From Parcubacteria group bacterium Gr01-1014_3 (GTDB lineage: Bacteria; Patescibacteriota; Minisyncoccia; UBA6257; WO2-44-18): a DNA stretch of 64,000 nt. The stretch spans positions 252,203 to 316,202 of the forward strand of contig VMGF01000001.1 of the NCBI GenBank assembly GCA_007376445.1. The letters run 5' to 3'. Below the pieces are notes generated by a model that did no database searches, was not told the DNA's origin, and was given only the letters and a program-made list of their open reading frames with translations. This document shows positions 3,566-62,824 of this stretch, one piece after another (the first letter of the stretch is position 1; each line of letters begins with the position of its first letter). A program made the translations under genes and the position numbers.

Positions 3566-4276
3566 TTAACGAATTATTAGGTTGGTTGAGGCCGAAGCGC
3601 TTTCGAGAGCTTGGCGGATATTTTGCGCGCTGGCCTCGAGTTTAACTGAAGTTCCTCTCGATAGTCCCCGTGTATCTAAGTCTAGTATATTCGATGCATT
3701 TTCCTCGGTAGCAGCGCCGTTGGCGGTCCAAGTGAAGTTGATCTGATCTAGCCCAGTAATGTTAAAGAAATAAAGGAGCGTTTTTATCGGATTAAGTCCG
3801 GCGGATATTAAATTACCTGGAAATGGAGCATCAATCACCAGTTCCGGATTAACTATCGGCACGGTGATAGTTTTGGATACATCATTACCCTTATAGCCAA
3901 CTACGACTGCCTGAACCGTGGCGTCACCTCTTAGAGAGTCAGCTATGAAAGAAAAACTACGCAATCCCCTGCCCGATTGTCCTAGTTCGTCATTGACGTA
4001 CCAGCGGATCGTATATGGCGCGAGATCAACGAGACGATTATTTTCCAAGAGATCTACGCCGGCCACTACACGCGCTCCGTTAACTGGCAGGACTTTCCCG
4101 GCGTAATCCGGCGGAACGCTATTGCCCGCTTTCCAGCTGAGGAGAAGCTCTGGCGCCTGCTGGGCGGTAGAAGAATTAGGAATCAAGAATAAAGAATAAA
4201 GAATAAATACAATAAAAATTAACCCATAATTCTTGATTCTTGATTCTTGATTCTTAGCCACTGATTCTTGATTCAT
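3566..4276 (-). CDS. Secreted hypothetical protein (T4SS-like locus)
   Basis: It has an N-terminal hydrophobic segment. Its 5' end is built from (aagaatc)n heptamer repeats and their inverted copy. Confidence 0.45.
   Translation of the reverse strand: MNQESVAKNQESRIKNYGLIFIVFILYSLFLIPNSSTAQQAPELLLSWKAGNSVPPDYAGKVLPVNGARVVAGVDLLENNRLVDLAPYTIRWYVNDELGQSGRGLRSFSFIADSLRGDATVQAVVVGYKGNDVSKTITVPIVNPELVIDAPFPGNLISAGLNPIKTLLYFFNITGLDQINFTWTANGAATEENASNILDLDTRGLSRGTSVKLEASAQNIRQALESASASTNLIIR
4178..4273. repeat. (aagaatc)n heptamer tandem repeat with inverted partner (gaatcaagaataaagaataaagaat ... attcttgattcttgattcttgattctta)
   Basis: Perfect 7-bp periodicity. It overlaps the 5' end of ORF 3566..4276. 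Confidence 0.6.
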
Positions 4277-4284
4277 AATTCTGT

Positions 4285-4656: not shown

Positions 4657-4680
4657 GTGAGTAATGAATTATTTAAATAC

Positions 4681-4745
4681 TAATTTTAAATTTTGAATTA
4701 TAAATTTTAATTTAATTTAAAATTGAAAATTTAGAATTTATAATT
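4681..4745. repeat. AT-rich (aatttta/gaaaatt)-type periodic repeat block, intergenic
   Basis: taattttaaattttgaattataaattttaatttaatttaaaattgaaaatttagaattta. Partially palindromic. Confidence 0.5.
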
Positions 4746-6474
4746 ATTTGTTTTCCAATATCTGTTCCGGCTTGGTGGTGATCACCTGGTCTTCCCCATA
4801 CGAAGCTACTATCTGGATAGCCACGTGATTCAAGCCGGCGAAAAACAAACCCAATCCGATCTCTGCCTGAAGCAGAAGGTTTTTTTCGGCTTCGCTGAGA
4901 TTAAAAGTTTTCGCTACGCTATCGATCATCGCCGGAGATTGTTTCAAAAGAAGCTGCATTGAAGAGTTGGTGATGATCGGGCGGCCGAATGGCGAGCTCA
5001 AGAAGTCTTCCACGTCTTGAGTGATAGTGCTGATGCCGAGGAAATATTTTCTGGCTCTCTTTACCAGGGCGAACAAGAAAGAAGCGCCATCCGGATATTT
5101 CATCATCCACCAGGCCTCGTCGATAATCAGAACACGGCGTTTTAATTGAGCGCGGACGATATTCCAAATGAAGTTGAGTACGATATACATCGCGATCGGA
5201 CGAAGTTCGTCCTCAAGGTCACGGATCGAAAATACTACAAGACGATTTTTGACATCAATATTGGTCGGCTGATTAGTGAAGCCAGCATAACTTCCTTTGG
5301 TGAAGCGATAAAGACGTTCGGCGATCTCGCGGCCGCCCTCCATATTTTCTAAAACAGCCTGCAGGTTTTCCATGAGTGGCGGCCTGGCGGTCGAGAAATC
5401 TTTACCAGGCACGATATCAAAAGCCGCGTAAGTTTCTGAGATTGCGCGGTCCAGCAAGGCTTCTTCTTGCGGATTGATCTCGCCAAGCATCAGTTTTACT
5501 AAACCGGTCAGATTTACCACGTGAGACTTCAAAACATCCGCCGGATCTTCACCTTGCGGGATCACCGGAATATCAAAAGGGTTGATGTGGCTTTGCGAAG
5601 CTAACGAAATCTTAAAGAAGCTCCCACCCACCACATTAGCCAGCTGTTGATATTCATTTTCCGGATCAATAATCAAAACATCGGTGCCAGTCATCAAAAG
5701 ACGAAGCGCTTCGAGTTTGGTGGCGTAAGATTTACCGGCGCCGGATTTGGCAAAGATGACCATATTGGCGTTTTCGAGCGAGAAGCGGTCAAAGATGATG
5801 AGGGTGCTGTTGTGGCGGTTAATGCCGTACAAAATTCCTTCATCCGAGGTTAGTGTGGCCGAGACAAACGGAAAGAACGAGGATAATGGGCTGGAATTGA
5901 GCGGGGTGTGAATGTCCAGCTGGTCAGTGCCGAGTGGTAGAACCGAAGAGATGCCTTCGATCTGCTGGAAAAGCGCCGGCTTAGCGTAAACCAACTTACT
6001 TTCCAGGACATAAGTGATCTCGGACTCGAGTTTATTCAGATTTTCGATGGTGTCGGCATAAAGCGTGATATAAACTCCGACATTAAAAAGGTGCTCTTGT
6101 CCCTGCTGGAGAGAATCTCGGAGCGCTTCGATGTCTTGAATGGCAGTTTCTAAGACCGGATTCCGGACTAAGCCCTTCTCTTGCTGTTCAGCGATCTCCG
6201 CCTCCACGATGGCGGCTTTTTTACGGAGATTTTTGAGCGCCATCGGCGTGTCCACCGGATGAACGACGACGGAGATATCTAAAAGATTCGGCAGATTGAT
6301 GATCGGCGAGAACCAACCGGTCGAGAGATAACGAGGATAGGTGAAAATAAAAAGCGTCTTCGCGAATTTATTGCCGAGCTTCACATAATTCGGATTTACC
6401 TCAATAGCCGGTGGGGCGATGATGTTTTTTATTTCTTGTTCCATTATTTTATTGCGCTGGTTCGGCTCGGGCAA
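4744..6474 (-). CDS. VirB4/TrbE/CagE-like type IV secretion ATPase
   Basis: Walker A (FAKSGAGKSYATK) and Walker B (RVLIIDEAWWMM) motifs in a protein of about 576 aa. Gene order and size match VirB4-like ATPases of Gram-positive/CPR T4SS-like loci. Confidence 0.8.
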   Translation of the reverse strand: MPEPNQRNKIMEQEIKNIIAPPAIEVNPNYVKLGNKFAKTLFIFTYPRYLSTGWFSPIINLPNLLDISVVVHPVDTPMALKNLRKKAAIVEAEIAEQQEKGLVRNPVLETAIQDIEALRDSLQQGQEHLFNVGVYITLYADTIENLNKLESEITYVLESKLVYAKPALFQQIEGISSVLPLGTDQLDIHTPLNSSPLSSFFPFVSATLTSDEGILYGINRHNSTLIIFDRFSLENANMVIFAKSGAGKSYATKLEALRLLMTGTDVLIIDPENEYQQLANVVGGSFFKISLASQSHINPFDIPVIPQGEDPADVLKSHVVNLTGLVKLMLGEINPQEEALLDRAISETYAAFDIVPGKDFSTARPPLMENLQAVLENMEGGREIAERLYRFTKGSYAGFTNQPTNIDVKNRLVVFSIRDLEDELRPIAMYIVLNFIWNIVRAQLKRRVLIIDEAWWMMKYPDGASFLFALVKRARKYFLGISTITQDVEDFLSSPFGRPIITNSSMQLLLKQSPAMIDSVAKTFNLSEAEKNLLLQAEIGLGLFFAGLNHVAIQIVASYGEDQVITTKPEQILENK

Positions 6475-13021: not shown

Positions 13022-13846
13022 TTAGAAATGATTTGCTAGGGTTTTTAACATATCAATATCGAGATTTTGGGGGCGAATGTCGGGTTTTAGGCCTATTTGT
13101 TCGAGAATTTTAGTAATTTCAGCCTTATTTTTACCAAGCCCTTCGGTTTTACTCAGGGCAAGTCCCTCAGATAAGTTATTCAGCAGGGTCTTTCTAGGCT
13201 GCTTAAAAGCGATTTTTATGAATTTATAGTATCGTTCCGCCTCCTTGATTCTTAATTCTTGATTCTTGATTCTTAATGTTATTATTGCCGAATCAACTTC
13301 CGGCGCCGGATCAAAATCGGTGGATTTCAGATTCATCAGGATCTTCGGTTCAGCCCAGAACTGCGTGGCGGCCGAAAGCAGATTCATCCTGGGTGGTTCG
13401 GCAATTATTCTTTCCGCAACCTCTTTTTGGATCATTAAGATGGTGAGTGCCGGTTTTCCGCCAGCTGGCGGATTCAGTTCGCTTAATACGCGCAGCAGTT
13501 TTCCGGTGATATAGTAAGGGATGTTTCCAACCAGTTTCCAGTTGTCAGTTTTCAGTTTTTCAGTTAAATCGGGGAGAATTTTTAATGCATCGCCTGTCAG
13601 TATTTCAAACTGATTAACTGTAGCGCTAGCGTAACTCATTAACTGATTCGCTAAACGCGCGTCTTTTTCGATACCGATGAAATTACAACCGACTTTTCGG
13701 CATTCTTCGATCAGAGGAATGGTTAACGCTCCCTTGCCCGGCCCGACCTCGATGACGGTTTCGCCAGTTTTCAGCTCTAAAGACGCGATTATCTTTTGGA
13801 TCGCGGCTTTATTTTTTAGGAAGTGCTGACCTAGTTTTTTTGGCAT
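13022..13846 (-). CDS. rsmA: 16S rRNA (adenine1518/1519-N6)-dimethyltransferase
   Basis: N-terminal KKLGQHFL motif and a SAM-binding VIEVGPGKGALT motif. It contains an in-frame (ttcttga)n repeat encoding RIKNQELRIK. Confidence 0.85.
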   Translation of the reverse strand: MPKKLGQHFLKNKAAIQKIIASLELKTGETVIEVGPGKGALTIPLIEECRKVGCNFIGIEKDARLANQLMSYASATVNQFEILTGDALKILPDLTEKLKTDNWKLVGNIPYYITGKLLRVLSELNPPAGGKPALTILMIQKEVAERIIAEPPRMNLLSAATQFWAEPKILMNLKSTDFDPAPEVDSAIITLRIKNQELRIKEAERYYKFIKIAFKQPRKTLLNNLSEGLALSKTEGLGKNKAEITKILEQIGLKPDIRPQNLDIDMLKTLANHF

Positions 13847-14252: not shown

Positions 14253-16094
14253 TTACCAAGTATCTTCGATATACGAATCTTCTTCGTTCGGAAGATTGTT
14301 TTTGTTGCCGCTGAGGTCGGCAAATTCGGTCAGTTCCGGCGGAATTTCATACACAAATCTTGATGGAATGTGCGTAAAAGTGAGGCAGAGCCGTTTTCTT
14401 GCGCGAGTCATGGCCACGTACATCAGACGCCGCTCTTCCTCGATTTCATCCAATGATCCATAGGACATTTGATGGGGCAAAAGGCCTTCATTACATCCCA
14501 TTACGTAAACTTGGTCGAATTCCAGGCCCTTGGAGAGATGAATGGACATGAGATGGACAGGGTTTAGGGTATAGCGATTAGCGTTTAGGGATTCATTGGC
14601 CGGCATATCGTTGGCTTGTAGCAATAGCACCCGTTCCAAAAATTCCGGCAAGGATTTAAATGTGCCGGCAAAAACTATTAACTCGTTTATGTTTTCAGTC
14701 CTCTCTTTTACATTGTCGAATTTTTTTCCGAGGTGATCAAAGTAGTTGGTGTTTTCCAGGAAATAATTTATCAGTTCTAGGATCGAGAGTTTTTCGCCGA
14801 GGCGCTGAAGCTCCCCGATCAGCTCGCCGGTGATCTTTTTCGGAAAAGTTTTTTCCAGGCGGTCAATGCTGACACTATCCTTCGGATTGGAAGCAACGCG
14901 TAAACCGGCAAGAATATCTTTTACCTCTTTTCTTTGATAAAAACGCAGTCCGCCGAAAATTTTATATGGAATCTGGTTCATGATCAGCGATTGCTCGATC
15001 GCGCGGGATTGCGCGTTGGTCCGGTAGAGAATGGCCGTAGTTTCACTATGACCATGACTATGACCAATGACCAATCCTTGTTTTTTATTGTCATTGTTAT
15101 TTGTCATCGTCAAGATGTTTCTTGCGACATACCGCGCTTCCTCATCGGCGTCATAAGCCTTAACAACCCAGATCGGATCTCCGGCCTCATTATCGGTCCA
15201 AAGAGTTTTCGGAGTTTGCATGGAATTTTTCTTGATCAGCGCTGAGGCGGCGTTAATAATGTTGGCGGTAGAGCGGTAATTTTGCTCCAGCTTTACGATT
15301 TTCGCCTTCGGCCAGTCCTGTTCGAAGTTCAAAAAATTGCGGAAGTCCGATCCGCGGAAACGATAAATGCTTTGCGCGTCATCGCCGACGACGCTGATAT
15401 TTTGGTGTTTTTCAGCGAGCAAGCGGATCAGGCGATACTGGCTGGTGTTTATATCCTGATACTCATCTACCAGGACCTGTTGGAAGCGGTTTTGATATTT
15501 GGTTAAGATTTCCGGATGATCCTCAAAAAGACGCACCGGTTTTTCTATGAGGTCATCAAAATCAAAGGCATTATTTTCCCTAAGAGCTTGTTCGTATTTA
15601 TTGAAAAGATGAATGAGCTGCGGCTCCAGATATTCTTTGGGCGCGATCAGTTCATTTTTTATTGAGGAAAATTTATTCTGAAGCTTTATGGGATTGGCGG
15701 CCTCCTTGGAAATGTCCAGCTGTTTCAAAATTTGGCGGATTAAACTTAAGGAATCGTCGTTATCATAAATCGTGAAGTAAGCGTTCCGGCCGAGTAGCTT
15801 CGCCTCTTCTTTCAAGATTCTTACTCCCAGCGAATGGAAAGTACCTATAAACAAATTTTCAATTTTCAATTTTAAATTTTCAATTCGGTTTCGCATTTCA
15901 TTGGCGGCTTTATTGGTAAAGGTTATCGCGATGATGTTGGCCGGGTTTACTCCCCGTTCGATGATCTTCATCAGGCGAGTGGTTAGGGTCTTGGTTTTGC
16001 CGGAACCAGCGCCGGCGGCGATCAAAATAGGCCCATTTCCATGGTCTACAGCCTCTTGCTGCCTGTCATTCAGTCGATTGTTATTTTGCTCCAT
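14253..16094 (-). CDS. ATP-dependent DNA helicase, UvrD/PcrA/Rep family
   Basis: It carries helicase motif I (AGAGSGKT), motif II (DEYQD) and the rest of the motif series. Internally there are an in-frame (aattttc)n repeat (RIENLKLKIENL) and an (atgacca)-like repeat (GHSHGHS). Confidence 0.85.
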   Translation of the reverse strand: MEQNNNRLNDRQQEAVDHGNGPILIAAGAGSGKTKTLTTRLMKIIERGVNPANIIAITFTNKAANEMRNRIENLKLKIENLFIGTFHSLGVRILKEEAKLLGRNAYFTIYDNDDSLSLIRQILKQLDISKEAANPIKLQNKFSSIKNELIAPKEYLEPQLIHLFNKYEQALRENNAFDFDDLIEKPVRLFEDHPEILTKYQNRFQQVLVDEYQDINTSQYRLIRLLAEKHQNISVVGDDAQSIYRFRGSDFRNFLNFEQDWPKAKIVKLEQNYRSTANIINAASALIKKNSMQTPKTLWTDNEAGDPIWVVKAYDADEEARYVARNILTMTNNNDNKKQGLVIGHSHGHSETTAILYRTNAQSRAIEQSLIMNQIPYKIFGGLRFYQRKEVKDILAGLRVASNPKDSVSIDRLEKTFPKKITGELIGELQRLGEKLSILELINYFLENTNYFDHLGKKFDNVKERTENINELIVFAGTFKSLPEFLERVLLLQANDMPANESLNANRYTLNPVHLMSIHLSKGLEFDQVYVMGCNEGLLPHQMSYGSLDEIEEERRLMYVAMTRARKRLCLTFTHIPSRFVYEIPPELTEFADLSGNKNNLPNEEDSYIEDTW

Positions 16095-17160: not shown

Positions 17161-17292
17161 CTTTTTCGAAAACAGAATAATCCGGCTCCAGCAGCCGGAT
17201 TTTCTTCGCCCTCGGCACGCCGGTCCGACCTTTTGGTCGGACACCGATCTTAGGATAGACCAGCCGGCGCGCCTCCGGGATGTTCCGAAAAA
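17161..17292. repeat. GC-rich structured repeat element, copy A (bidirectional terminator hairpin plus structured module closed by a long-range helix)
   Basis: About 85% identical to 43939..44071. Helices are maintained by compensatory changes (outer helix tttttcg/cgaaaaa here versus cctcttt/aaagagg in copy B). Confidence 0.6.
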
Positions 17293-22325: not shown

Positions 22326-22407
22326 AAAAACGCAAGATAATTTTAAATTCTCAATTTTAAATTTGAAATTAAATTAAAATTTATAATTAAAAATTTAAAA
22401 TTAAAAA
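22326..22407. repeat. AT-rich (aatttta/aaaattt)-type periodic repeat block, intergenic
   Basis: ataattttaaattctcaattttaaatttgaaattaaattaaaatttataattaaaaatttaaaattaaaaaa. Confidence 0.5.
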
Positions 22408-39254: not shown

Positions 39255-39383
39255 AAGACACATATAGAGCTAAAACATACGAGGGGTCGTATATTGACAA
39301 AGGGGTGATAGTACGCTATATTTAGGACATCAAGACGAAGAAGGACCCGAAAGGTGTTGGTGCCTTAGGGGCCTTTTTCATTT

Positions 39384-39998
39384 TTAGGCTATATAAGTTT
39401 TTAAATTTTCTAGACAATCAAATGCTTCGCCACCTAATTCATTATATAAAGATGAGGCAAACTGTTTATTTGGGAAAAGTATTTTCTTAAACCTTTTCTT
39501 CGTTATAAGGTAACTAACCAGTTTCTTGTAATCGCCGTCCCCAGAAATTAAGACAACTTGATTAAAGTTTTGGTTGTCTATCAAATTTTTCATAACTTCA
39601 AAAACTAGATCAGCATCAACATTACCCTTCTTTTTTGATTTGGATTTATTGTGATGTTCTTTGAATACCAAAATAAAACCAGCCTTTTGTATCTCATTGT
39701 ACATATCCGCATTATTATCTTTTAGGTTTCCTAAAAGATAATATGCCTCAGAAACATTATAGTTTTCTTTCAGGTACACCCTCAGCTTGGCCAAATTTAC
39801 TTCCCATGCGTTTCCGCAATTACAATCCGCCAACTTTATTTCTTTTATAGAAATTTTGAGCCTAGCGGCACATTTATAACATTTAGTGGTTCCAAAATGC
39901 ATGTTCTGTCCGTCAACAAAAGCGAGATTTGGTTTATCGGATTTTTCCGAAAATACCTCGGCCTCTGTTTTTGTTGCCTGTTCTTGATATTTATCCAT
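39384..39998 (-). CDS. NYN/LabA-like (PIN-fold) nuclease domain protein with inserted zinc ribbon
   Basis: Motifs FVDGQNM, GNVDADLVFEVM and LISGDGDY with an internal CxxC...CNC segment. AT-rich gene. Confidence 0.55.
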   Translation of the reverse strand: MDKYQEQATKTEAEVFSEKSDKPNLAFVDGQNMHFGTTKCYKCAARLKISIKEIKLADCNCGNAWEVNLAKLRVYLKENYNVSEAYYLLGNLKDNNADMYNEIQKAGFILVFKEHHNKSKSKKKGNVDADLVFEVMKNLIDNQNFNQVVLISGDGDYKKLVSYLITKKRFKKILFPNKQFASSLYNELGGEAFDCLENLKTYIA

Positions 39999-40126
39999 TT
40001 ATCAAAATTATGCGATAACCAATCTCAAGTATCAACCCCATTTACCTCTATGGGAGAGTCAGTTTTTTGATTGACGTCCGACGGTGAAAAGTTTATTATC
40101 TTTTAAGTTCTAAAAGGAGGTGACAG

Positions 40127-40330
40127 ATGATCGGTTGGCTGATCTTCGCCGTGGTGGTTATCGCGATCGTGGGATGGAGGGTAGTCAGCTTTTTTCGCAG
40201 TCGTAAGATTGAAAAAGCGAAACGAGAAAAAGAATTAGATCGCGCGTACGAAGAGTACTACTCTGATCCCGTGAACATTCAGTGGCAGAAGCAGGCACGC
40301 GAAGAGTTCTGGGCGATGATGCGTTGGTAA
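40127..40330 (+). CDS. Small single-TM protein (67 aa)
   Basis: Strong RBS aaaaggaggtgacag before the ATG, an N-terminal TM helix, and a terminator hairpin after the stop. Confidence 0.45.
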   Translation: MIGWLIFAVVVIAIVGWRVVSFFRSRKIEKAKREKELDRAYEEYYSDPVNIQWQKQAREEFWAMMRW

Positions 40331-40380
40331 ATATATTTGGCCGCCTATTTAGGTGGCCATTTTAATTTAGCGAGATAGGA

Positions 40381-40408
40381 TTGACTTTATAACGTAATCT
40401 GTTAAGAT
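40381..40408 (+). promoter_or_regulatory. Promoter TTGACT-16-TAAGAT for the GC-rich gene 40468..41088
   Basis: Near-consensus -35/-10 elements, with the RBS aaaggagg 7 nt before the ATG. Confidence 0.5.
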
Positions 40409-40467
40409 ACGGTGAAATCTTGGCAATGCGCTGAGATAACAATCGTACCTTGAAAGGAGGAGTAGCA

Positions 40468-41088
40468 ATGCTCACGAACACAGGACGGACAATAACATTT
40501 CCTGAATTCTCCGGTATTCGGTGTTTGATGATGCCTTACATCCAGGGTCGGTCGGCGTCGATTCCCGACATCTACGCCCCGTATCGGGAGATCGTCGATT
40601 CGGTGTTTCTGCGAAAGGGCGACATCGGTTTCCTGACGATTGACGAGTCTCTTGCCACCGAAGGGAAGCCCCACCGAGGCCAGCGCGCACAATACGCCCG
40701 GGCATTGCACACAGAAGCAGGAAGGGATCCGAATAAAATCTACTACGGTTGGGGCGGAGGATGGGGCAAAGCACCACACCGCGTCACCCTCGACCGGGGT
40801 GTCCGGATCCTGCTCGCCAACAATCTCGACGAGAGCTGCGCCGTGTGGGATGGAGAACACGAGGACACGTCGCCTGACGGAGACATCGGACACGCGGCGG
40901 CCCAGTATCCGTATCGCGACGCCACGTTTCTCAGGGCCGGTGATGTCCACGAGATCGGCATCCTGACGCCACACGAAAGCTTGCCGGTGCCACGAGACTT
41001 CAACCGGCAGTTCTTGCGGATCATCTCGTCTGGAGTCCATGGGCGCGAGGAGTACTTCACTCGCAATCCTCTGGTGCCGTTCAATTAA
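40468..41088 (+). CDS. Hypothetical protein, strongly GC-rich (probable foreign origin)
   Basis: Start at ATG 40468 after aaaggagg (the listed ORF begins at the TTG inside the RBS). It contains a YYGWGGGWGKAPH motif and has no assignable family. The minus-strand ORF 40402..41109 is treated as an antisense artefact. Confidence 0.5.
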   Translation: MLTNTGRTITFPEFSGIRCLMMPYIQGRSASIPDIYAPYREIVDSVFLRKGDIGFLTIDESLATEGKPHRGQRAQYARALHTEAGRDPNKIYYGWGGGWGKAPHRVTLDRGVRILLANNLDESCAVWDGEHEDTSPDGDIGHAAAQYPYRDATFLRAGDVHEIGILTPHESLPVPRDFNRQFLRIISSGVHGREEYFTRNPLVPFN

Positions 41089-41101
41089 ACTGATAAGCTG
41101 A

Positions 41102-41136
41102 CCCGCCATCTCCTCTGGAGCTCTGGCGGGTTTTTA
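41102..41136 (+). terminator. Rho-independent terminator (cccgcca...tggcggg plus T5)
   Basis: A 7-bp GC stem with an internally structured loop, followed by TTTTTA. Confidence 0.6.
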
Positions 41137-41140
41137 TTCC

Positions 41141-41168
41141 TTGATTTTTATATAAAATATGCTAAGAT
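41141..41168 (+). promoter_or_regulatory. Promoter TTGATT-16-TAAGAT driving the structured leader of ORF 41488
   Basis: Same architecture as the 40381 promoter. Confidence 0.45.
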
Positions 41169-41189
41169 ATGGTCGTTCTTTGAATTTCC

Positions 41190-41487
41190 AATTCACTCCC
41201 TGGATTTGGAGGTGTAGCCACCTCCTTTCACATAAGCTCCCGGACGCGATGCGAGCTATTTTCTTACAGAACTAGGCTTGAGGGCGCAGGTAATAGAAAT
41301 CTATACCCAGCTCGAAAACGACGTTATGTAAGAAAATAGCCGCATCCCGAAGGGTTGTTGCTAAAATGTCAGCTCGCTTCAAAGATGAATCCTAGCAGTA
41401 GACCTCTACAGCTTCAGATTCACTTCTTCGCGATCTGAACATTTTAGCTAACAACGCGCCTGAGATTTATGTGAAAGGAGGTGGCAG
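41190..41487 (+). ncRNA. Large structured 5' leader (candidate riboswitch or cis-regulatory RNA) with SD-sequestering helix
   Basis: H1 pairs 41218..41235 with 41467..41484 over 18 perfect bp, and its 3' strand contains the SD aaggagg. H2 pairs 41255..41268 with 41327..41340 over 14 perfect bp. H3 pairs 41354..41368 with 41440..41455. A competing hairpin ggaggtg-tagc-cacctcc (41208..41224) and an upstream cactccc (41194..41200) are also present. Confidence 0.5.
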
Positions 41488-41949
41488 ATGGTCTTTGAAT
41501 TGCCCGTATTCCTCAGAAAGTCATTTTCGATGATGATCAGAGAGGCAAAATTCGACGACTACAATACCACCATCAACGCGCGTAACTTTCCGCTCCGGAA
41601 TAGAAATTACTGGAAGACTAAGCCTGATATCGTTTCCGTCGAACTTTTGACTTTCGGAAGAAGGGTTGATAACAACGAAATTCTGACCGCAGTCACGGCC
41701 AAGAATCTTAGATTTTCTACGCTGGTGGAGCTGCTGGCGCTTGCTAAGCACTTTCCCGAAGAATCGATCCGGCAGCCGATCGTGGCCATGGGCTCAGCGT
41801 GGCATGAGCGCAGTTATCTCGGCGGACCAGTCCTCCGATATTTCCCGTATCTTTATTCTTATGATCATAATAAGAAACGCGGTTTGGATCTATTTTGGCT
41901 CGAGACGGAATGGGATGAGAATTGGGCGTTTGCCTGTACCCGGTGTTAA
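41488..41949 (+). CDS. Hypothetical protein (153 aa)
   Basis: ATG lies 6 nt after aaggagg. The gene is followed by terminator acccgg-tgttaa-accgggt plus T6. No domain recognised. Confidence 0.5.
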   Translation: MVFELPVFLRKSFSMMIREAKFDDYNTTINARNFPLRNRNYWKTKPDIVSVELLTFGRRVDNNEILTAVTAKNLRFSTLVELLALAKHFPEESIRQPIVAMGSAWHERSYLGGPVLRYFPYLYSYDHNKKRGLDLFWLETEWDENWAFACTRC

Positions 41950-41999
41950 ACCGGGTTTTTTATTTGATTTTTATTTAAAATTTGCTATAATATATCGAA

Positions 42000-43247
42000 A
42001 TGAAATCATCGTTCAAAAAACTTCCGGGTTCGCAAATTGAGCTTGAAGTGGAGTTAGACCAAAAAGAATTCGAGCCTTACTGGAAAGAGGCGCATGAAAA
42101 AGCCTTTAAGTCAGTTGATATTAAAGGTTTTCGCCCTGGTGCCGCGCCAAAAGAACTGGCCGAGAAAGCCGTGGATCAGGAAAAGGTTTTTTCGGAAGCC
42201 GCCAATCGAGCGGTTAGGATCACCTTGGACGAAGTTGCCCAAGATAATAGCTGGACGATCATCGATGCTCCCAAGATCGAATTAACGGATGCTCAGCTTG
42301 GCTTGAAGTACAAAGGAACTCTTACTTTGTTCCCGGAAGTTAAATTGGGAAACTATAAAAAGATCGCCAAAAAAGTTTTTGGTGAGAAAAAAGAAGTTAA
42401 AGCTGAAGCCGCTGAAATAGATAAGACGATCGAGTGGGTTCGTAATTCACGCGCTAAGCAAACTTTAGTTAATCGCGCCGCTAAGGCAGGCGATCTGGTG
42501 GAGACTGATGTTGAAACGTTAATTGAGGGTAAGCCAGTGGAAGGCGCTCAACTGAAAGGCGATAAATTCATTCTCGGCGACAGCCGTCTGATGCCGGGTT
42601 TTGATAAGCAATTAGAAAATCATTCGGCCGGCGAGAAGCTGGAGTTTTCCATTACCGCTCCGGCAGATTATTGGCACAAGGAAATTCGCGGCAAGAAGGT
42701 GGATTTTAAAGTTAACTTAATTTCCGTCTTTGAACGTGAGCTTCCGGAGGTCAATGAAGAGTTCGTCAAAGGACTAGGAAAATTTACTTCCGTAGAAGAA
42801 TTGAAGAAGAGCATCGCCGATGGCTTGATTAAAGAAAAATCCGAAAAAGAAGGCGAGCGTTTGCGCATCAAGACGTTGGAGGAGATTATTAAGGACGCGG
42901 ACATGGATATCCCCGAAGTTATGATCGAGAAAACCCTCGAAGGAATGGTGGCCGACGCGCAGGCGATGATGAAAGCGCAGCGCTTGCCTGCCGATAGGCA
43001 GGGCCTGAAAGAAGAAGACGTCCGAAATTCATTGAAAGATCGCGCACGCAACAATGTAGCCACCAATTTAGTTATTTATAAGATCTCCGAAACGGAAAAT
43101 CTCAAGCCGACCGAAGAAGAGGTGCAGGCCGAGGTGGATATTTTGACCGGCCGCATGGAGCGGAGCGTGAATCCGAAGCAGTATTACAACTACGCTTTCG
43201 GTTTAGTGCAGAATAGGAAAGTCTTTGAGTTTTTAGCGAAGCAATAG
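42000..43247 (+). CDS. tig: Trigger factor
   Basis: N-terminal ribosome-binding region (GFRPGAAPK), a central PPIase-like domain and a C-terminal arm. Confidence 0.85.
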   Translation: MKSSFKKLPGSQIELEVELDQKEFEPYWKEAHEKAFKSVDIKGFRPGAAPKELAEKAVDQEKVFSEAANRAVRITLDEVAQDNSWTIIDAPKIELTDAQLGLKYKGTLTLFPEVKLGNYKKIAKKVFGEKKEVKAEAAEIDKTIEWVRNSRAKQTLVNRAAKAGDLVETDVETLIEGKPVEGAQLKGDKFILGDSRLMPGFDKQLENHSAGEKLEFSITAPADYWHKEIRGKKVDFKVNLISVFERELPEVNEEFVKGLGKFTSVEELKKSIADGLIKEKSEKEGERLRIKTLEEIIKDADMDIPEVMIEKTLEGMVADAQAMMKAQRLPADRQGLKEEDVRNSLKDRARNNVATNLVIYKISETENLKPTEEEVQAEVDILTGRMERSVNPKQYYNYAFGLVQNRKVFEFLAKQ

Positions 43248-43928: not shown

Positions 43929-43938
43929 GTTCGAGCAT

Positions 43939-44071
43939 CCTCTTTCCGGAAACAGAATAAAACGGCTCCAGCGGCCGTTTTTTCTTCGCCCTCGGCGCGC
44001 CGCTCCGGCTTAAGTCGGAGACCGATTATAGGAGAACAGCCGGCGCGCCTCCGGGATGTTCCGTAAAGAGG
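43939..44071. repeat. GC-rich structured repeat element, copy B
   Basis: See copy A at 17161..17292. It includes the bidirectional terminator acggctccagcggccgt plus T-run, a GGCGCGCC core, and the closing helix cctctttccgg/ccgtaaagagg. Confidence 0.6.
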
Positions 44072-44105
44072 ATACTCTCAACTCGGTGAATTAAATGTGG
44101 TAAAA

Positions 44106-44134
44106 TTGACAAAATAGGGTATTTGTCTTAGAAT
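44106..44134 (+). promoter_or_regulatory. Promoter TTGACA-17-TAGAAT for ORF 44186
   Basis: Consensus -35 element with 17-nt spacing, followed by a 5'UTR hairpin aatcggga-atgg-tcccgatt. Confidence 0.55.
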
Positions 44135-44185
44135 ACGACTAGCTAAATCGGGAATGGTCCCGATTGTTTACAGCTTCAAAGGAGG

Positions 44186-44992
44186 GTGAAGGTGGTTGAC
44201 CTTACTAGGGGCGGGGCGCTGACGCGATTTCTTGATGAATTTTCATTCCCTCAGATTCGGGGTTTAATGAAATTCTTGGCCTCCAGCAGTTCCGAAAATA
44301 ACGACAGGGCGTATTTTCAGCTAATGTCTGTGGGCTCCGATGCGCATTTCACTGAATCATTATCTCTGCCAAAAGTGTTCAGATCTTTTAGTCTCAGCTT
44401 TTGTCAGATCAGGCAGGATGGTCAGGTTAAAGAGTACATTACCGAAGAAGACTTTAATAAAGCGGCATCTATTATCAATTCTCTATTTGATACGAAAAAG
44501 ATAGCTTTATCAGAAGAGCCTAAGGGCAAAAGAAAAAATCCGGTTTGCGCGATTATCGCCGCTAAAGGCGGTAAATCCGATATCGTTGTTTGGAATCCTC
44601 TAACCGGAGAAGTAGTGATCTCCAATCATGCCTGGCGTCGATTCTTGGAGAGGTTTTATAAGATGACGCGCAAAGAGGCCAAGGCCAACAAATTTTCCGA
44701 AGATGAGCTCGTGAAACTTCAATCAAGCTTTCTCAAGGCCAAAAAGACCAATCTTTCTGAAAGAGTCGCCTTTGGCAGGTTGTTAAATAATGGCGTTAAG
44801 CCAGCGACCTATCTTTACAATCAGAAAGATAATCTGCGGTTTATCGTTATTGATCAAGGCGAGACAAAGCTACTTGTCACCGCTGAGGATCCCTATCATC
44901 GTGGCAAAAAGCCTATCGAGGCGCCTAGCGAGTGTGATTTACCTGATTACATGCAGCGTTATTTCGAAAAAAAGAAAGAGCTTGACTCATAA
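44186..44992 (+). CDS. Hypothetical protein (268 aa)
   Basis: GTG start following aaggaggg. A strong terminator (acagcccacctgggctgt plus T-run) follows. No domain recognised. Confidence 0.5.
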   Translation: MKVVDLTRGGALTRFLDEFSFPQIRGLMKFLASSSSENNDRAYFQLMSVGSDAHFTESLSLPKVFRSFSLSFCQIRQDGQVKEYITEEDFNKAASIINSLFDTKKIALSEEPKGKRKNPVCAIIAAKGGKSDIVVWNPLTGEVVISNHAWRRFLERFYKMTRKEAKANKFSEDELVKLQSSFLKAKKTNLSERVAFGRLLNNGVKPATYLYNQKDNLRFIVIDQGETKLLVTAEDPYHRGKKPIEAPSECDLPDYMQRYFEKKKELDS

Positions 44993-45047
44993 CAGCCCAC
45001 CTGGGCTGTTTTTTATTTTTCGTCAGGTTAAGTTAGAATATAGCTAT

Positions 45048-45170
45048 GAATCCCACACATAACAAAGAGCGCTGTGGCGATTCGGTAGTGGTCGTAAATA
45101 ATAGAATTACTTATAAAAATAATTAACCAAGAACAAAGAGCGAATACATAAACTCTTTGTTATGTGTGGG
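45048..45170. repeat. 20-bp perfect inverted repeat pair (ATCCCACACATAACAAAGAG ... CTCTTTGTTATGTGTGGGAT) enclosing about 83 bp; MITE-like or long-range leader helix
   Basis: The arms are exact reverse complements. The 3' arm ends at the tyrS ATG. An internal direct repeat aacaaagagcg occurs twice. Confidence 0.55.
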
Positions 45171-47053: not shown

Positions 47054-49423
47054 ATGTCACCACAGAAGAAAAAAATCACAAGCAAAATAGTGAAAATATT
47101 GAAATTCGGCGGCTCATCCGTTGGTTCGGCTGAGCGGATTAAGAATGTATGTAGAATTATTTATAATTCTACCCTGAGCTTGTCGAAGGGCGCCCGAATC
47201 GCCGTGGTAGTTTCGGCAATGCAAGGAGTAACCGACAAGCTTTTGGCTTTAAAGATCAAAGAAGTAAAAGAAATTCATCAAAAAGCCGCCGCTGAGCTGA
47301 AAGTGCCTTTCCCGGCGTTCATTTTTCAAGAATTAGAAGCGGTGGAGAGCGGCGCCCGGATGCTTGGCGACTTCTCTCCGATGGTGATGGATCGGGTGGC
47401 GAGTTTCGGCGAGCGATTGTCGGCGGCCTTAGTGGCTTCCTATTTACATAAAAAACTACCGGCGGAAGCCTTGGACGCGCGCGAGGTGGTAAAAACCGAT
47501 AACAATTTTCAAAACGCGGCCGTGGATTTCCCGGCGACCAATCGTGCAATTCAGAATTATTTTAAAAAACATCCGGCAGTCCAGGTAATTACAGGATTTA
47601 TCGGTTCCACTAAAGATAATAAAACCACGACCCTCGGCCGCGGTGGTTCAGATTATTCCGCGGCGATCTTCGGCGCGGCGCTTGGCGTGGAAGCGATCGA
47701 GATTTGGACGGACGCCAACGGAATTTTGAGCGCCGATCCGCGAGTTGTCCCGGAGGCTAAGACTTTACCGGCTGTGAGCTATGAAGAAGCTTTTGAGATG
47801 GCGTACTTTGGCGCCAAGGTTATTCATCCGGCCACGATGGTGCCGGCGATTAAAAAAAGTATTCCGATCGTGATTAAAAATACTTTTAATCCGGCGCATT
47901 CCGGTACATTCATTGGAAATCGAAAATTGAAAATTGAAAATTCTGGTAGTCCCGCTAAGAACATTTCTTCACTTGATGGAATGGCTTTAATTACGGTGGG
48001 CGGTACGGATCTCGCTGGCGTGCCTGGTACGGCGGAGCGGGTTTTTCGCGCGGCAGCTAAAGAAAAAGCCAATATAGTCTTAATTGCCCAGGCTTCTTCC
48101 GAGCACACGATCTGCTTCGCGGTAAAGGAAACGGAAGCGGAACGAGCTATTCGCGGCTTGAAAGCGGAATTTGATCTCGAAATTGGCCGGGGGAAGATGT
48201 CGATAGAAGTTCGTAAGGGCCAGAGCGTAGTAGCGGTAGTCGGTGACGGAATGCGAGGCGTTCCAGGAATCTCCGGTAAAATTTTTGATGTATTGGGCAA
48301 AGAAAAAATTAACGTTAATGCTATCGCTCAGGGCGGCTCAGAGAAAAATATTTCATTAGTAGTTCAAGAAAGCGATAAGGCGGTGGCCGTGCAGGCAGTT
48401 CACCGGATTTTGTTTGAAAAATCATTAACACCGGCTATTTTCATTATCGGCGCCGGCAATGTTGGCGGGGAGCTTCTTAGACAGCTTAATGAAAGAATCA
48501 AGAATCAGGAATTAAGAATCAGGATTTGTGGAATTGCCGATTCAAATAAAATGCACCTTGAGGAAGGCGGCATTGATTTAAAAAATTGGAAAAAACCGCT
48601 GGCCGCATCCGCAACCAAAATGAACCTGGATAATTTCTTAAAGGAGGTTCAAAAAAACAGGTCGGATAAGAAAGTTTTAGTGGATTGCACGGCGAGCGAA
48701 CCGATCGCGAAAAGATATTCTGAATTCGTGGCGGCGGGGTGCGATATCGTGACTCCGAATAAAAAGGCCAACGTGCTCCCGATGGCGAAATATACTGCTT
48801 TCCGGAAAGTTTTGGAAAAATATGGAAAAACTTTCCATTATCAGGCCAATGTCGGCGCCGGGTTGCCGGTTTTGGACTCGGTAAAAGGTTTAGTATCGGT
48901 GGGCGATAGCATAAAAAAGATCGAGGGAATTTTCTCTGGTACCTTGAGCTACCTTTTTAATAATTTCGATGGTAAGAAAAAATTCAGCGAACTGGTTTTG
49001 GATGCGAAAGCGAAAGGCTATACCGAGCCGGATCCGAAAGAGGACCTGAGTGGGCAGGATGTTGGTAGGAAACTTCTGATCCTGGCGAGAGCTACTGGCC
49101 TACCGGCTGAACTTTCGGAGGTGGTTTTAGAAAATCTGGCTGAATATAATGATCAGCAGATGGCGAATAAGCTGAAAAAGGCTAAGGCCAAGAAGTGCGT
49201 CCTACGATATGTTGGTTCTGTACAAGGTGGTCGGTTATCCGCTAAATTAAAGGAGATTCCGCTAGATAACCCATTAGCCCATGTAAGCGGAGCCGATAAT
49301 ATAGTCGCAATCTATAGCGGGTACTATAAAAATCAGCCGTTGGTCATAAAAGGGCCTGGCGCCGGAGCAGAAGTGACCGCTGCGGCCGTGTTGAGGGGTA
49401 TTATAAGAGCAATTCAAAATTAA
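47054..49423 (+). CDS. thrA: Bifunctional aspartokinase / homoserine dehydrogenase
   Basis: N-terminal aspartokinase (KILKFGGSSVGS), ACT domains, and a C-terminal homoserine dehydrogenase Rossmann fold (IIGAGNVGGELL). The start is likely ATG 47054; the listed ORF starts at 47018. It contains in-frame (gaaaatt)3 and (aagaatc)n repeats. Confidence 0.8.
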   Translation: MSPQKKKITSKIVKILKFGGSSVGSAERIKNVCRIIYNSTLSLSKGARIAVVVSAMQGVTDKLLALKIKEVKEIHQKAAAELKVPFPAFIFQELEAVESGARMLGDFSPMVMDRVASFGERLSAALVASYLHKKLPAEALDAREVVKTDNNFQNAAVDFPATNRAIQNYFKKHPAVQVITGFIGSTKDNKTTTLGRGGSDYSAAIFGAALGVEAIEIWTDANGILSADPRVVPEAKTLPAVSYEEAFEMAYFGAKVIHPATMVPAIKKSIPIVIKNTFNPAHSGTFIGNRKLKIENSGSPAKNISSLDGMALITVGGTDLAGVPGTAERVFRAAAKEKANIVLIAQASSEHTICFAVKETEAERAIRGLKAEFDLEIGRGKMSIEVRKGQSVVAVVGDGMRGVPGISGKIFDVLGKEKINVNAIAQGGSEKNISLVVQESDKAVAVQAVHRILFEKSLTPAIFIIGAGNVGGELLRQLNERIKNQELRIRICGIADSNKMHLEEGGIDLKNWKKPLAASATKMNLDNFLKEVQKNRSDKKVLVDCTASEPIAKRYSEFVAAGCDIVTPNKKANVLPMAKYTAFRKVLEKYGKTFHYQANVGAGLPVLDSVKGLVSVGDSIKKIEGIFSGTLSYLFNNFDGKKKFSELVLDAKAKGYTEPDPKEDLSGQDVGRKLLILARATGLPAELSEVVLENLAEYNDQQMANKLKKAKAKKCVLRYVGSVQGGRLSAKLKEIPLDNPLAHVSGADNIVAIYSGYYKNQPLVIKGPGAGAEVTAAAVLRGIIRAIQN

Positions 49424-51623: not shown

Positions 51624-52881
51624 CACCAACGGAAAATCCAAGCCGGTGGATTTTAAAACCGCGCTTTTACGTGGTTTGGCGGAGGACGGGGGACTCTACA
51701 TGCCCAACGAGTTGGGCAATTTTCAATTTTCAATTTCTAATTTTCAATTTTGGAAGATTTTAAAAAACTTTATAGATATTCCAGAAAAGGATTTAGAAAA
51801 AATCTGCGCGGAAGCATTTAATTTTCCGGTGCCGCTAGTGCGAATAAGCAAAGATATACATGTCTTGGAGCTGTTTCACGGCCGAACACTTTCCTTCAAA
51901 GATTTCGGCGCGCGATTTATGGCGCGAGTGATGGATTATTACATGAGAATAAAGAATCAAGAATTAGGAATTAAGGAAAAATTAAATATTGTTGTCGCAA
52001 CCTCGGGCGACACAGGGAGCGCCGTGGCCAACGGATTTTATGGTTTATCCAACATCAAAGTCTTTGTTTTGTATCCGAGCAAACGGGTGAGTGAGCTGCA
52101 GGAAAAACAGATGACGACTTTAGGAAAAAATATCGTAGCCTTGGAGGTACAGGGTGACTTTGATGATTGTCAGCGTCTCGCCAAGCAAGCCTTGGCCGAT
52201 TCGAATCTGAGAAAAGAGAAAAATCTTTCTTCGGCGAACTCTATAAATATTGGCCGACTTTTACCGCAGATGTTTTATTACTTTGAAGGCGTAAAACAAC
52301 TTGGTAAACAGGCGGTGTTCGTGGTGCCAAGCGGGAATTTCGGCAATCTGACTGCCGGTTTGTTTGCCAAAAATTTAGGTTTGCCGATTGAGCGGTTTAT
52401 CGCGGCCGTTAATATCAATTCCGCTATCCCCCGTTTTTTGGAGTCTGGCAAAATGGAAATTCGCAAAACACGTTTAACGCTCTCTAACGCGATGGACGTC
52501 GGAAGCCCCAGCAACTGGGCTCGGATTGCCGATTTATATGAGGGAAATCGGGAAAAAATTCAGAAAGATATTTCGGCAGTTACGATCAGCGAAGAAGAGA
52601 CGCATGAAACAATTAAAAAGGTTTACCAGGAGTTTGGCTATATAGCCGATCCGCACACGGCCGTTGGTTTGGCGGCGGCGATGAAAGATACAAGCCGATC
52701 TCCAAAAATAGTCTTAGCGACCGCTCACCCGGCTAAATTCAAAGAGACCGTGGAAGAAGCAATTGGAAGCAAAATCAGTTTGCCACCCGCCTTATCTAAA
52801 CTACGTGGAAAAACTAAAAAAAGCATAGTAATCGGTAAAAACTATTCGGAATTATACTTACAACTTACGACTAATAACTAA
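51610..52881 (+). CDS. thrC: Threonine synthase
   Basis: PLP-lysine region LELFHGRTLSFKDFGARFMA and a glycine-rich SGNFGNLTAG loop. Its N-terminal variable region contains the (aattttc)5 repeat. Confidence 0.85.
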   Translation: MLFYSTNGKSKPVDFKTALLRGLAEDGGLYMPNELGNFQFSISNFQFWKILKNFIDIPEKDLEKICAEAFNFPVPLVRISKDIHVLELFHGRTLSFKDFGARFMARVMDYYMRIKNQELGIKEKLNIVVATSGDTGSAVANGFYGLSNIKVFVLYPSKRVSELQEKQMTTLGKNIVALEVQGDFDDCQRLAKQALADSNLRKEKNLSSANSINIGRLLPQMFYYFEGVKQLGKQAVFVVPSGNFGNLTAGLFAKNLGLPIERFIAAVNINSAIPRFLESGKMEIRKTRLTLSNAMDVGSPSNWARIADLYEGNREKIQKDISAVTISEEETHETIKKVYQEFGYIADPHTAVGLAAAMKDTSRSPKIVLATAHPAKFKETVEEAIGSKISLPPALSKLRGKTKKSIVIGKNYSELYLQLTTNN

Positions 52882-61768: not shown

Positions 61769-62824
61769 ATGAAAATCTTATCTATCGAAACGAGTTGCGA
61801 TGAGACCTCGGTCGCTTTAGTTGAGGCGAAGGGCGGATTAAAATATCCGGAGTTTAAGGTTATCGAGAATATCGTCTCCTCGCAGATCGCCGTGCACCGG
61901 CCATTTGGCGGCGTGGTGCCTAATCTCGCCAAGCGGGAACACCTTAAGAATCTTCCTAAGATTCTACAAAAATTGAAAATTAAAAATTTAAAATTTAAAA
62001 TTGATGCCGTCGCGGTCACCGTTGGCCCCGGTCTCGAACCGGCGCTTTGGACCGGAATCGAATATGCCAAGCAGCTATCAAAGGATTTAAATAAGCCGCT
62101 TATCGGGGCGAATCATATGGAGGGCCACCTATATTCTAATTGGTTACCGCGTAAGATTGCCGCGCTTGCTTCTACGCGTAGAAGCGCTCGCAATGACGGA
62201 ATACGATTCCCAGCGATTGCGTTGGTGGTGAGCGGGGGACACACGATACTTTTGAAAATGGATTCGCTGACCAAGTGGAAAAACTTGGGCGAAACGCTTG
62301 ATGACGCGGCTGGAGAAGCTTTTGATAAAGTCGCGCGAATGTTGAAGTTGCCATATCCGGGCGGGCCAGAAATTCAAAAACTAGCCCTTCGACAGGCTCA
62401 GGGTAAACATCCGAAAGGCACGATCAAGTTCCCACGGCCGATGTTGCGAGACGATAATTATAAATTCAGCTTCTCTGGATTAAAAACCTCCGTGCTTTAT
62501 TATCTTCGCGATAATCCGAAAGCTAAAAAAGAAGATGTGGCGGCCTCATTCCAGCAGGCGGTTCTGGATGTGCTGGTTGGTAAAACCATGCGCGCGGCCA
62601 GAGCGTACCGCGCGAAATCGGTTTTGCTTTGCGGTGGCGTGTCGGCCAACGTGGCATTGCGGGAATCTTTGAAAGAATCAGCAGAAAAATATGGCATGAA
62701 ATTTTTTGTGCCGGAATTTGAATATAATACCGATAACGCGGCCATGATCGCCGCCGCGGCGTATATTCAGTATTTAAGAAAGAAGAAGTTAAAACTGGAA
62801 GCAAATTCAAATTTAAGTTTATAA
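61769..62824 (+). CDS. tsaD: tRNA N6-adenosine threonylcarbamoyltransferase TsaD
   Basis: Motifs LSIETSCDET and HRPFGGVVPNLA, plus a His-rich metal site (NHMEGH). The start is set at ATG 61769; the listed ORF start at 61748 overlaps tRNA-Glu. A linker region contains the (gaaaatt)-type repeat. Confidence 0.85.
   Translation: MKILSIETSCDETSVALVEAKGGLKYPEFKVIENIVSSQIAVHRPFGGVVPNLAKREHLKNLPKILQKLKIKNLKFKIDAVAVTVGPGLEPALWTGIEYAKQLSKDLNKPLIGANHMEGHLYSNWLPRKIAALASTRRSARNDGIRFPAIALVVSGGHTILLKMDSLTKWKNLGETLDDAAGEAFDKVARMLKLPYPGGPEIQKLALRQAQGKHPKGTIKFPRPMLRDDNYKFSFSGLKTSVLYYLRDNPKAKKEDVAASFQQAVLDVLVGKTMRAARAYRAKSVLLCGGVSANVALRESLKESAEKYGMKFFVPEFEYNTDNAAMIAAAAYIQYLRKKKLKLEANSNLSL

Follow-up and report, generated by a model that had tools for sequence, protein, structure and literature searches.

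A MITE-like palindromic repeat family of Patescibacteria with a probable insertion between a Shine-Dalgarno sequence and its start codon

The stretch analysed here (the window) is 64,000 nt of contig VMGF01000001.1 from Parcubacteria group bacterium Gr01-1014_3. A structured segment lies in it directly 5′ of ORF 41488, an open reading frame (ORF) encoding 153 aa. We read this segment, positions 41217-41485, as a copy of a non-autonomous palindromic mobile element that was inserted between the Shine-Dalgarno sequence (SD) of the gene and its start codon, and we put the probability of this reading at about 0.8. In kind the element is like the MITEs (miniature inverted-repeat transposable elements) and the Rickettsia palindromic elements (RPEs). 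The family to which it belongs is a widespread structured repeat, common in metagenomes of Patescibacteria (the candidate phyla radiation, CPR). An earlier note on the same DNA had described a riboswitch-like leader built of three nested helices, H1, H2 and H3; H1 is the terminal inverted repeat of the element, and H2 and H3 are conserved arms of the family. Other loci are cited below by number (L001 and so on).

The anatomy given in that note holds up, and all of its nested pairings are present. The arms of H1 (41217-41235 and 41467-41485) are complementary at 19 of 19 nt (100%), where 18 bp had been claimed, those of H2 (41255-41272 and 41323-41340) show 94% complementarity across 18 nt, and H3 is a portion of a long helix at 41354-41455. 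The ribosome-binding site (RBS) does lie inside the 3′ arm of H1, as the SD AAAGGAGGTG at 41474-41483, with the ATG at 41488 following after 4 nt, and the local hairpin GGAGGTG-TAGC-CACCTCC is found at 41208-41225. The minimum free energy of the 331-nt leader is −140 kcal/mol, against −85 ± 5 in shuffles (z = −10.3); the opposite strand is equally stable (z = −10.5). By eye the note had found no match to B12, TPP, FMN, SAM, glmS or T-box, and the Rfam search that it proposed gave zero matches in 40000-42600 with Rfam 15, even at E ≤ 10. At gathering scores, tRNAs alone were matched in the whole window. The element measures 269 nt from repeat end to repeat end, and its internal ORFs are all shorter than 40 aa.

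Family and insertion sites

The first relative was a weak nhmmer match, with the leader as query and all loci gathered for synteny as targets, in another Patescibacteria genome (L008), between tyrS and an aspartokinase gene. This 270-nt stretch has the same architecture as the window copy and a fold z of −12, and between these two sequences alone compensatory double changes are seen in 31 of 82 pairs. Scanning the metagenome collection with a junction pattern gave 89 stretches, where by our estimate about 5 are expected by chance. A covariance model built from two sequences, the window copy and L008, matched about 75 of the 89 over their full length, at 50-270 bits. The family is known from these ∼75 metagenome loci and the one Patescibacteria genome. 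Its cores are 236-251 nt long (∼270 nt with the ends) with G+C of 0.36-0.66, end-to-end lengths across 47 copies are 258-276 nt with a mode of 271, and the median pairwise identity among copies is 58%. No similar element was found in the plasmid and phage collections. Viral contigs, scanned with a looser 19-base junction pattern, gave 14 matches, which is the chance level, and no significant model match (best E = 0.28). A literature search found no MITE- or RPE-like element of CPR bacteria described.

Terminal inverted repeats of 13-19 bp are present throughout the family, and there are two types of end. Type B, the type of most copies, has the ends GAACCYATCTCAA ... TTGAGATRGGTTC, while type A has GCCACCTCCTTTCACATAAGC ... 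TTATGTGAAAGGAGGTGGC and comprises the window copy, L033, L041 (also L053 and L054) and L076. Of 47 copies, 20 have the dinucleotide TA next to the 5′ end and 18 have it next to the 3′ end, where our chance expectation is ∼6-8%; among the flanks that are not TA, its transitions (CA, TG) make up a large share.

Homology is confined to the element. When L033, L041 and L076 are compared with the window by BLAST, the element alone matches, from 41206-41217 to 41485-41501. The L033 match starts at 41217 and ends at 41501, 16 nt beyond the repeat end, and the others end at 41485. Identity of the window copy is 87% with the copy in L041 and 84% with that in L033, and these copies precede different genes. 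The copy in L054 is 92% identical to the window copy (over 170 nt), whereas a housekeeping gene of L054 is just 67% identical to the window. Some contigs carry two copies (L040 and L046, which are on one contig; L081; L095; L067), often mutually diverged, and at syntenic sites of related genomes the element is missing.

The surroundings of the copies are varied. Neighbour genes are unrelated, copies are found in either orientation, and some lie beside tRNA genes. The stop codon of a long ORF is formed by the junction TA/G in 11 of 47 cases (six with the junction at the left end; five, on the other strand, with it at the right), and in 19 of the 47 copies an ORF has its start no more than a few bases from an element end. 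A bias of element length plus 2 to multiples of three (19/47) is not significant. Two variant copies (L060, 436-708, and L105, 10366-10637) have the ends GACCTCCTTTCCATAAT or GGCTCCACTTCCATAAT and tRNA 5′ halves (GCGCGATTAGCTCAGTG...) on both sides, a layout that looks like insertion into, or duplication of, the start of a tRNA gene.

Copies are also found inside genes. In L100 the element lies within dnaE, and a 1027-aa ORF reads through it: 271 nt and a TA make 273 nt, or 91 stop-free codons. This insert lies after the PHP domain (residues 21-192) and before the polymerase domain, which begins at residue 420, and the 91-codon stretch has poor or no alignment to solved Pol III alpha chains. 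A 774-aa ORF in L038 spans another copy, which is probably stop-free and in frame. The frame that reads THL...EMG has no stop in 14 of 47 copies, whereas the other forward frames are open in 3-5, and it predicts a conserved peptide. Further along the same dnaE of L100 (reverse strand), residues 867-982 give a weak match to Pfam Intein_splicing (E = 9e-7, 29.3 bits, below the cut-off of 35.8).

The type-A copies share one arrangement. In all four independent ones the 5′ repeat has an SD-like motif immediately on its left, and the 3′ repeat is followed by a start codon at most 7 nt away. The layout is GGAGGTG-TA, element, AG-ATG in the window; GGAGGTGG-TA, element, TA-GTG in L041; GGAGCGG-CA, element, T-ATG in L076; and AAAGGAAAGGTTG, element, A-ATG in L033. 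The genes downstream are unrelated: one encodes a protein like the targets of diversity-generating retroelements (DGRs), one an S49/NfeD-like peptidase, and two are of unknown function. We propose that in the window the element would have been inserted at a TA in the spacer between a native SD (GGAGGTG) and the ATG of ORF 41488. With its ends CCACCTCCTTTC ... GAAAGGAGGTGG, the subfamily places a new perfect SD 4-6 nt ahead of the start codon, and the 3′ repeat would take over the role of the old one.

What the earlier note had called an anti-anti-SD is, on the simplest reading, the displaced native SD, as the same layout at three other independent type-A insertions indicates. Its complementarity to the 5′ repeat follows automatically, because the 5′ repeat is the complement of an SD. 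The locus L002 encodes a protein 52% identical to that of ORF 41488, followed by the promoter of tig (trigger factor), as in the window. Its 36 upstream bases fit the left flank of the window copy (CGTTCTTTGAGTTTACA against 41173-41189, 15 of 17 bases), and this motif of the 5′ untranslated region (UTR) runs directly into GGGAGGTGACTAT-ATG without the element. L002 thus appears to be an empty site, a related locus apparently without the paired segments, which is a finding that the earlier note had itself counted against its proposal. Taking the same upstream bases for the 3′ end of an element was considered and rejected, since the left flank fits them better (score 24 versus 14).

Conserved fold and expression of the downstream gene

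The architecture that the copies share is a four-way junction without unpaired junction bases, formed by P1, P2, a mini-hairpin and P3. P1 joins both ends and is closed by CGC/GCG, P2 opens with GAU and finishes with AUC, the mini-hairpin is CC-GAA-GG, and P3 opens with GUUG and finishes with CAAC; the invariance of these junction bases is in part an artefact of the junction search pattern. In a MAFFT alignment of 55 distinct copies, to which no structure was fitted, RNAalifold predicts 91 pairs, 79 of them with compensatory changes. Of the cells, 92% are paired (71% in shuffles), and covariation scores 0.547, compared with 0.171 for shuffled alignments (none of 500 reaches the observed value) and ∼0.1 with slid partners. 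Helix 1 keeps 22 of 22 pairs across the family, with compensatory change. Covariation across homologous copies, which the earlier note had proposed to check, is strong. Covariation so far above the shuffles implies that the fold is under constraint or is maintained by a templated process.

Whether the constraint acts on RNA was judged from the pairs that are not Watson-Crick. Such cells comprise 228 G-U and 133 A-C on the modelled strand, a 1.7-fold excess of G-U; in P1 there are 59 G-U and 51 A-C, that is, no excess. This asymmetry is weak for a strand-specific RNA and agrees at least as well with a constraint on DNA, or on both strands. Candidate reasons for keeping the fold are a folded single-stranded intermediate of mobility, templated correction of a quasi-palindrome, and a role at the RNA level that renders insertions harmless, for instance processing or insulation. 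We infer that the fold probably serves the element's own propagation or its tolerance by the host rather than ligand sensing.

A bolder version of this idea, which we hold possible though doubtful, is that the family is a class of structured mobile element of the CPR, undescribed so far, in which the four-way-junction fold is itself the functional unit, beyond known MITE biology. In that case a single-stranded DNA or RNA form resembling a Holliday junction or a tRNA may be recognised by a recombinase or a reverse transcriptase (RT) for mobility, or host RNases may recognise the fold and excise or insulate the insertion. Subfamily A may then be a 'polite' variant that aims at the spacer between SD and start codon and replaces the SD, possibly also the promoter, of the gene that it invades.

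The fold and the copies inside genes also bear on an intron-like or processing RNA, in which P1 would join the flanks and the junction would be recognised by RNase III or, as a mimic of tRNA, by RNase P/Z; a ligase might or might not take part. Removal, or separation of cistrons, would explain why insertions are tolerated in genes and operons, including the essential gene dnaE. P1 does juxtapose both insertion boundaries, the closing stem with three hairpins has a cloverleaf-like topology, the fold is kept by compensation in diverged copies, and there is the mild G-U excess on the modelled strand. However, the copy in dnaE, and probably that in L038, is stop-free and in frame, its 273 nt being the 91 codons expected if it is translated in the manner of RPEs. 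The Rfam search found no known ribozyme core, copies lie in either orientation relative to neighbour genes, and P1 has no G-U excess (59 against 51). We consider such an RNA unlikely.

In a transcript starting at ∼41176, the bases of the SD within H1 have a probability of being unpaired of ∼0 in the predicted ensemble, so that the earlier claim of a sequestered RBS stands. Opening the SD and AUG costs 23.9 kcal/mol, even with the GGAGGUG:CACCUCC hairpin formed. Because the alternative states are ∼24 kcal/mol apart, the segments are not a balanced switch. Of the riboswitch-like leader, then, the anatomy, the burial of the SD and the covarying fold remain, and regulation by alternative pairing is unsupported.

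A cis-regulatory RNA more generally (a riboswitch, or a switch responsive to protein or temperature) would have P1 hide the SD and GGAGGTG act as an anti-anti-SD. It would account for the SD buried in P1, for the fact that four out of four type-A copies, each with its SD in P1, lie directly 5′ of a start codon, and for the 1.7-fold excess of G-U over A-C mismatches; the strong covariation and conserved junction are common to this proposal and to a mobile element and do not discriminate between them. On the other side, there is no Rfam match, and long near-perfect helices meeting in a junction without unpaired nucleotides are unlike ligand pockets. The genes downstream are unrelated, and most members are not 5′ leaders at all: they occur in either orientation, next to stop codons or tRNA genes, and within dnaE. 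The alternative state is ∼24 kcal/mol uphill, the relative L002 is apparently without the element, and homology is limited to the element, ending about the repeat ends. We regard a cis-regulatory function as quite unlikely.

It is very unlikely, in our judgement, that the segment is a free-standing gene for a structured non-coding RNA, either housekeeping or defence-related, which lies 5′ of ORF 41488 by chance. The conserved length (∼245-270 nt) and structure and the promoter-like site upstream would agree with such a gene. They are set against the several diverged copies on some contigs, the lack of a terminator after the element, the copies embedded in ORFs or touching stop and start codons, the lack of a consistent relation between the modelled strand and the neighbour genes, and the absence of the element from syntenic sites in related genomes.

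If the segment is an inserted element, as we prefer, its effect on ORF 41488 would depend on the transcript. In read-through mRNA the two ends would pair and bury the new SD, and translation would be strongly damped, or silent unless something intervenes. Translation could proceed if the helix were unwound or cut, for example by RNase III acting on the long perfect duplex. Transcription starting inside the element, at TGCTAAAAT, would give a transcript without the 5′ arms and with the SD free. In style TGCTAAAAT fits the extended −10 promoters of this genome, and such motifs occur 13 times in the window, most of them intergenic and gene-facing by our reading. Three of the four type-A copies (window, L033 and L041) have the motif, and L076 and type B lack it, so that an internal promoter was rejected as a family-wide feature and is kept as a hypothesis for the subfamily.

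Two Logan contigs of the same organism break in the apex of P3, L016 ending at 41381 and L001 starting at 41415. A likely cause of the breaks is that other copies of the repeat, present in the sample, have k-mers in common with this one. An invertible switch, to which the breaks had pointed, was rejected, as the break points are asymmetric about the hairpin and shared k-mers explain them better.

Several points weigh against our interpretation as a mobile element. The evidence for an empty site is a 17-nt match on a 557-nt contig. TA is found on both sides in 10 of 47 copies only, and a duplication of the target is deduced from enrichment; because TA is identical to its reverse complement, a duplicated target looks just like a longer repeat. 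L041 has a clean TA...TA; in the window the left flank is TA and the right flank AG. In the loci examined no transposase was found near the copies or between them (between the paired copies of L081 and L067 lie ordinary genes), and solo extra repeat ends turned up but no autonomous partner with matching ends. The element is single-copy in the window, with no second copy in its 64 kb. We know of no ordinary MITE that keeps an elaborate four-way junction by compensatory change, and the 1.7-fold G-U excess may leave room for a role at the RNA level. Lastly, all our statements on translation and promoters are inferred.

Genomic setting

The features of the locus are collected in Table 1. Two claims of the earlier note concern its left side: the promoter is there as a promoter-like site of putative function, and the preceding gene does have its own terminator hairpin, which is kept in other loci.

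Table 1. Positions, in the window, of the element, its parts and nearby features
Feature	Position	Strand	Basis or remark
Probable mobile palindromic element, whole, subfamily A	41217..41485		Homology limits; covariance model, 256 bits; member of alignment A5
5′ terminal inverted repeat, outer 5′ strand of P1 (5′ arm of H1), anti-SD-like CCACCTCCTTTC	41217..41235	+	Same end in L033, L041 and L076
Inner 5′ strand of P1, its terminal conserved CGC closing the junction	41236..41247	+	Columns 32-36 pair with 274-278
P2 arm (including H2), GAU...AUC at junction, conserved bulged A	41248..41346	+	Helix 3 compensatory in 17/22 pairs
Junction mini-hairpin CC-GAA-GG	41347..41353	+	Invariant in the family, yet part of the search pattern
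P3 arm (including H3), GUUG...CAAC at junction, apex GTAG-loop-CTAC	41354..41455	+	Helix 7 compensatory in 20/22 pairs
Inner 3′ strand of P1, GCG...	41456..41466	+	Fold and alignment
3′ terminal inverted repeat, outer 3′ strand of P1, AAAGGAGGTGGC	41467..41485	+	Holds SD AAAGGAGGTG (41474-41483) for ORF 41488
Putative displaced original SD GGAGGTG (41208-41214) and TA insertion target (41215-41216)	41208..41216	+	Likeness to L041, L076, L033 and L002
5′-UTR motif CGTTCTTTGAATTTCCA, marking the original leader	41173..41189	+	15/17 bases as in L002 positions 7-23
Promoter-like TTGATT-N16-TAAGAT with TGC extended −10	41141..41168	+	Likely start of read-through transcript; putative function
TGCTAAAAT, extended −10-like motif in P3	41359..41367	+	Candidate outward promoter of subfamily A; motif match
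ORF 41488, downstream gene, 153 aa, relative of Patescibacteria DGR variable proteins	41488..41949	+	Start codon conserved in P0002
Intrinsic terminator of the upstream 212-aa gene, outside the element	41102..41136	+	Kept with the gene in L011, L013 and L015
7-nt-period repeats	4171-4284, 4668-4760, 13229-13275, 15854-15885, 22338-22403, 47901-47942, 48493-48536, 51718-51757, 51932-51988, 61961-62003		

In relatives (L006, L007 and L009) an H+-pyrophosphatase gene directly abuts tig, from which it follows that 39255-41999 of the window (∼2.7 kb) is a variable insertion island. The island contains an NYN-domain gene, a small membrane ORF, a gene for a 212-aa protein, the structured segment and ORF 41488. 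The trigger factor encoded in the window has just 54% identity to the closest ones. The 212-aa ORF (40450-41088) has a G+C of ∼0.60, against 0.46 for the window, and more than 1,250 homologues, the best 120 of them 64-100% identical in amino acids; Pfam gave no match, and phrog_8970 alone was found for it. Conservation so far above that of trigger factor (54%) suggests a horizontally spreading gene. Together with its terminator hairpin this gene recurs in unrelated contexts with other DNA downstream, and a tie between it and the structured segment was rejected on that ground.

ORF 41488 has no Pfam match and is related to proteins that adjoin DGR reverse transcriptases in other Patescibacteria. 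After one homologue, in L004 (2094-4906), come a copy of its C-terminus that looks like a template repeat, an Avd-like ORF and a reverse transcriptase, and in L009 (6299-8679) a homologue adjoins an RVT_1 reverse transcriptase. No RT, Avd or template repeat was found in the 64-kb window, which makes ORF 41488 an orphan or a remote DGR target. For the same reason, and because the 3′ end of the ORF is not repeated in the leader, a retron or DGR RNA was rejected as an explanation of the segment.

A 38-nt direct repeat, 82% identical, is found at 41133-41170 and in the tig promoter region at 41956-41993. It contains the T-tail of a terminator and a TTGATT-N16-TGCTAWRAT promoter, and its two copies bracket the cassette of leader and ORF 41488. 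At the origin of this cassette, a duplication of the tig promoter seems to have taken place. The start of the leader (41169-41200, ATGGTCGTTCTTTGAATTTCCAATTCACTC) resembles the start of ORF 41488 (41488-41517, ATGGTCTTTGAATTGCCCGTATTCCTC), and part of this likeness is listed as repeat D7; it may be the remnant of a short duplication of a gene start, or chance.

Other repeats and insertions were seen in the window. A second insertion, at 43929-45161 between clpP and tyrS, carries a 268-aa ORF of unknown function; L009 has a DGR at that site. A dispersed repeat of ∼125 nt occurs at 17163-17291 and 43943-44067, on the same strand and 26.8 kb apart, with blocks of 65 and 35 nt that are 86-94% identical and a hairpin included. 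AT-rich repeats with a period of 7 nt (of the types AATTTTC and AAGAATC/GATTCTT) lie in intergenic DNA on both strands (Table 1).

Comparison with known systems

Translational riboswitch platforms, like the segment, have an anti-SD paired to the SD and, upstream, an SD-like stretch able to pair with the anti-SD. Unlike them, it has no aptamer, no regulon, and states that lie ∼24 kcal/mol apart; its three pairing segments are accounted for by the geometry of insertion. For annotation, it matters that a leader of textbook-like appearance, with anti-SD and SD, proved in all likelihood to be the by-product of a transposon-like insertion. The covariance model and the diagnostic motifs can be used for masking such elements in CPR genomes.

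The transposase mRNAs of IS10 and IS50 are subject to fold-back inhibition: read-through from outside pairs the halves of the inverted repeat and hides the RBS, while transcripts that start inside are translatable. What we propose for P1 and the internal TGCTAAAAT follows the same logic. It differs in that a host gene is concerned rather than a transposase, and in that the internal promoter is a motif match which is not conserved outside the subfamily.

Stowaway-like MITEs, the TA-targeting MITEs of IS630/Tc1-mariner, are shorter than 300 bp, have terminal inverted repeats and strong secondary structure, and do not code for a transposase. Our family is like them in size, terminal inverted repeats, TA-enriched flanks and homology confined to the element. 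It differs in that no partner transposase was found in the loci examined and that TA is present on both sides in just 10 of 47 copies; its internal structure is kept by compensatory change, which is not a defining property of such MITEs.

The Correia/NEMIS, ERIC, BOX and RUP repeats are co-transcribed, form long duplexes that serve as RNase III substrates, terminators or promoters, and modulate adjacent genes (PMC10969869). Long duplexes are shared with the present family, which has a four-way junction, belongs to another lineage and is known from sequence.

RPEs, in the passages of PMC10969869 that cite Ogata et al. 2000, are short, stably folding elements that lie between genes or, in frame and free of stops, within unrelated and even essential genes, to which they add a conserved peptide. 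Our family is similarly dispersed in intergenic DNA and has a stop-free in-frame insertion (91 codons in dnaE). It is longer, ∼270 nt against ∼100-150 nt for RPEs as those passages describe them (PMC10969869), and has a four-way junction with heavy covariation in place of a simple hairpin. Most of its copies are intergenic, and one subfamily has an SD in its ends. It occurs in Patescibacteria rather than Rickettsia, and the two were compared by features alone, no sequence similarity being expected.

An abundant repeat family is thereby documented in the small, compact genomes of Patescibacteria. It tolerates or exploits insertion at stops, at starts and in frame in an essential polymerase gene, and the ends of one subfamily double as ribosome-binding sites. 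If the fold is needed for mobility or for removal at the RNA level, the mechanism would be a new one. If it is not, the family would be the CPR counterpart of the RPEs and would give rise to insertions in proteins and to rewired translation signals.

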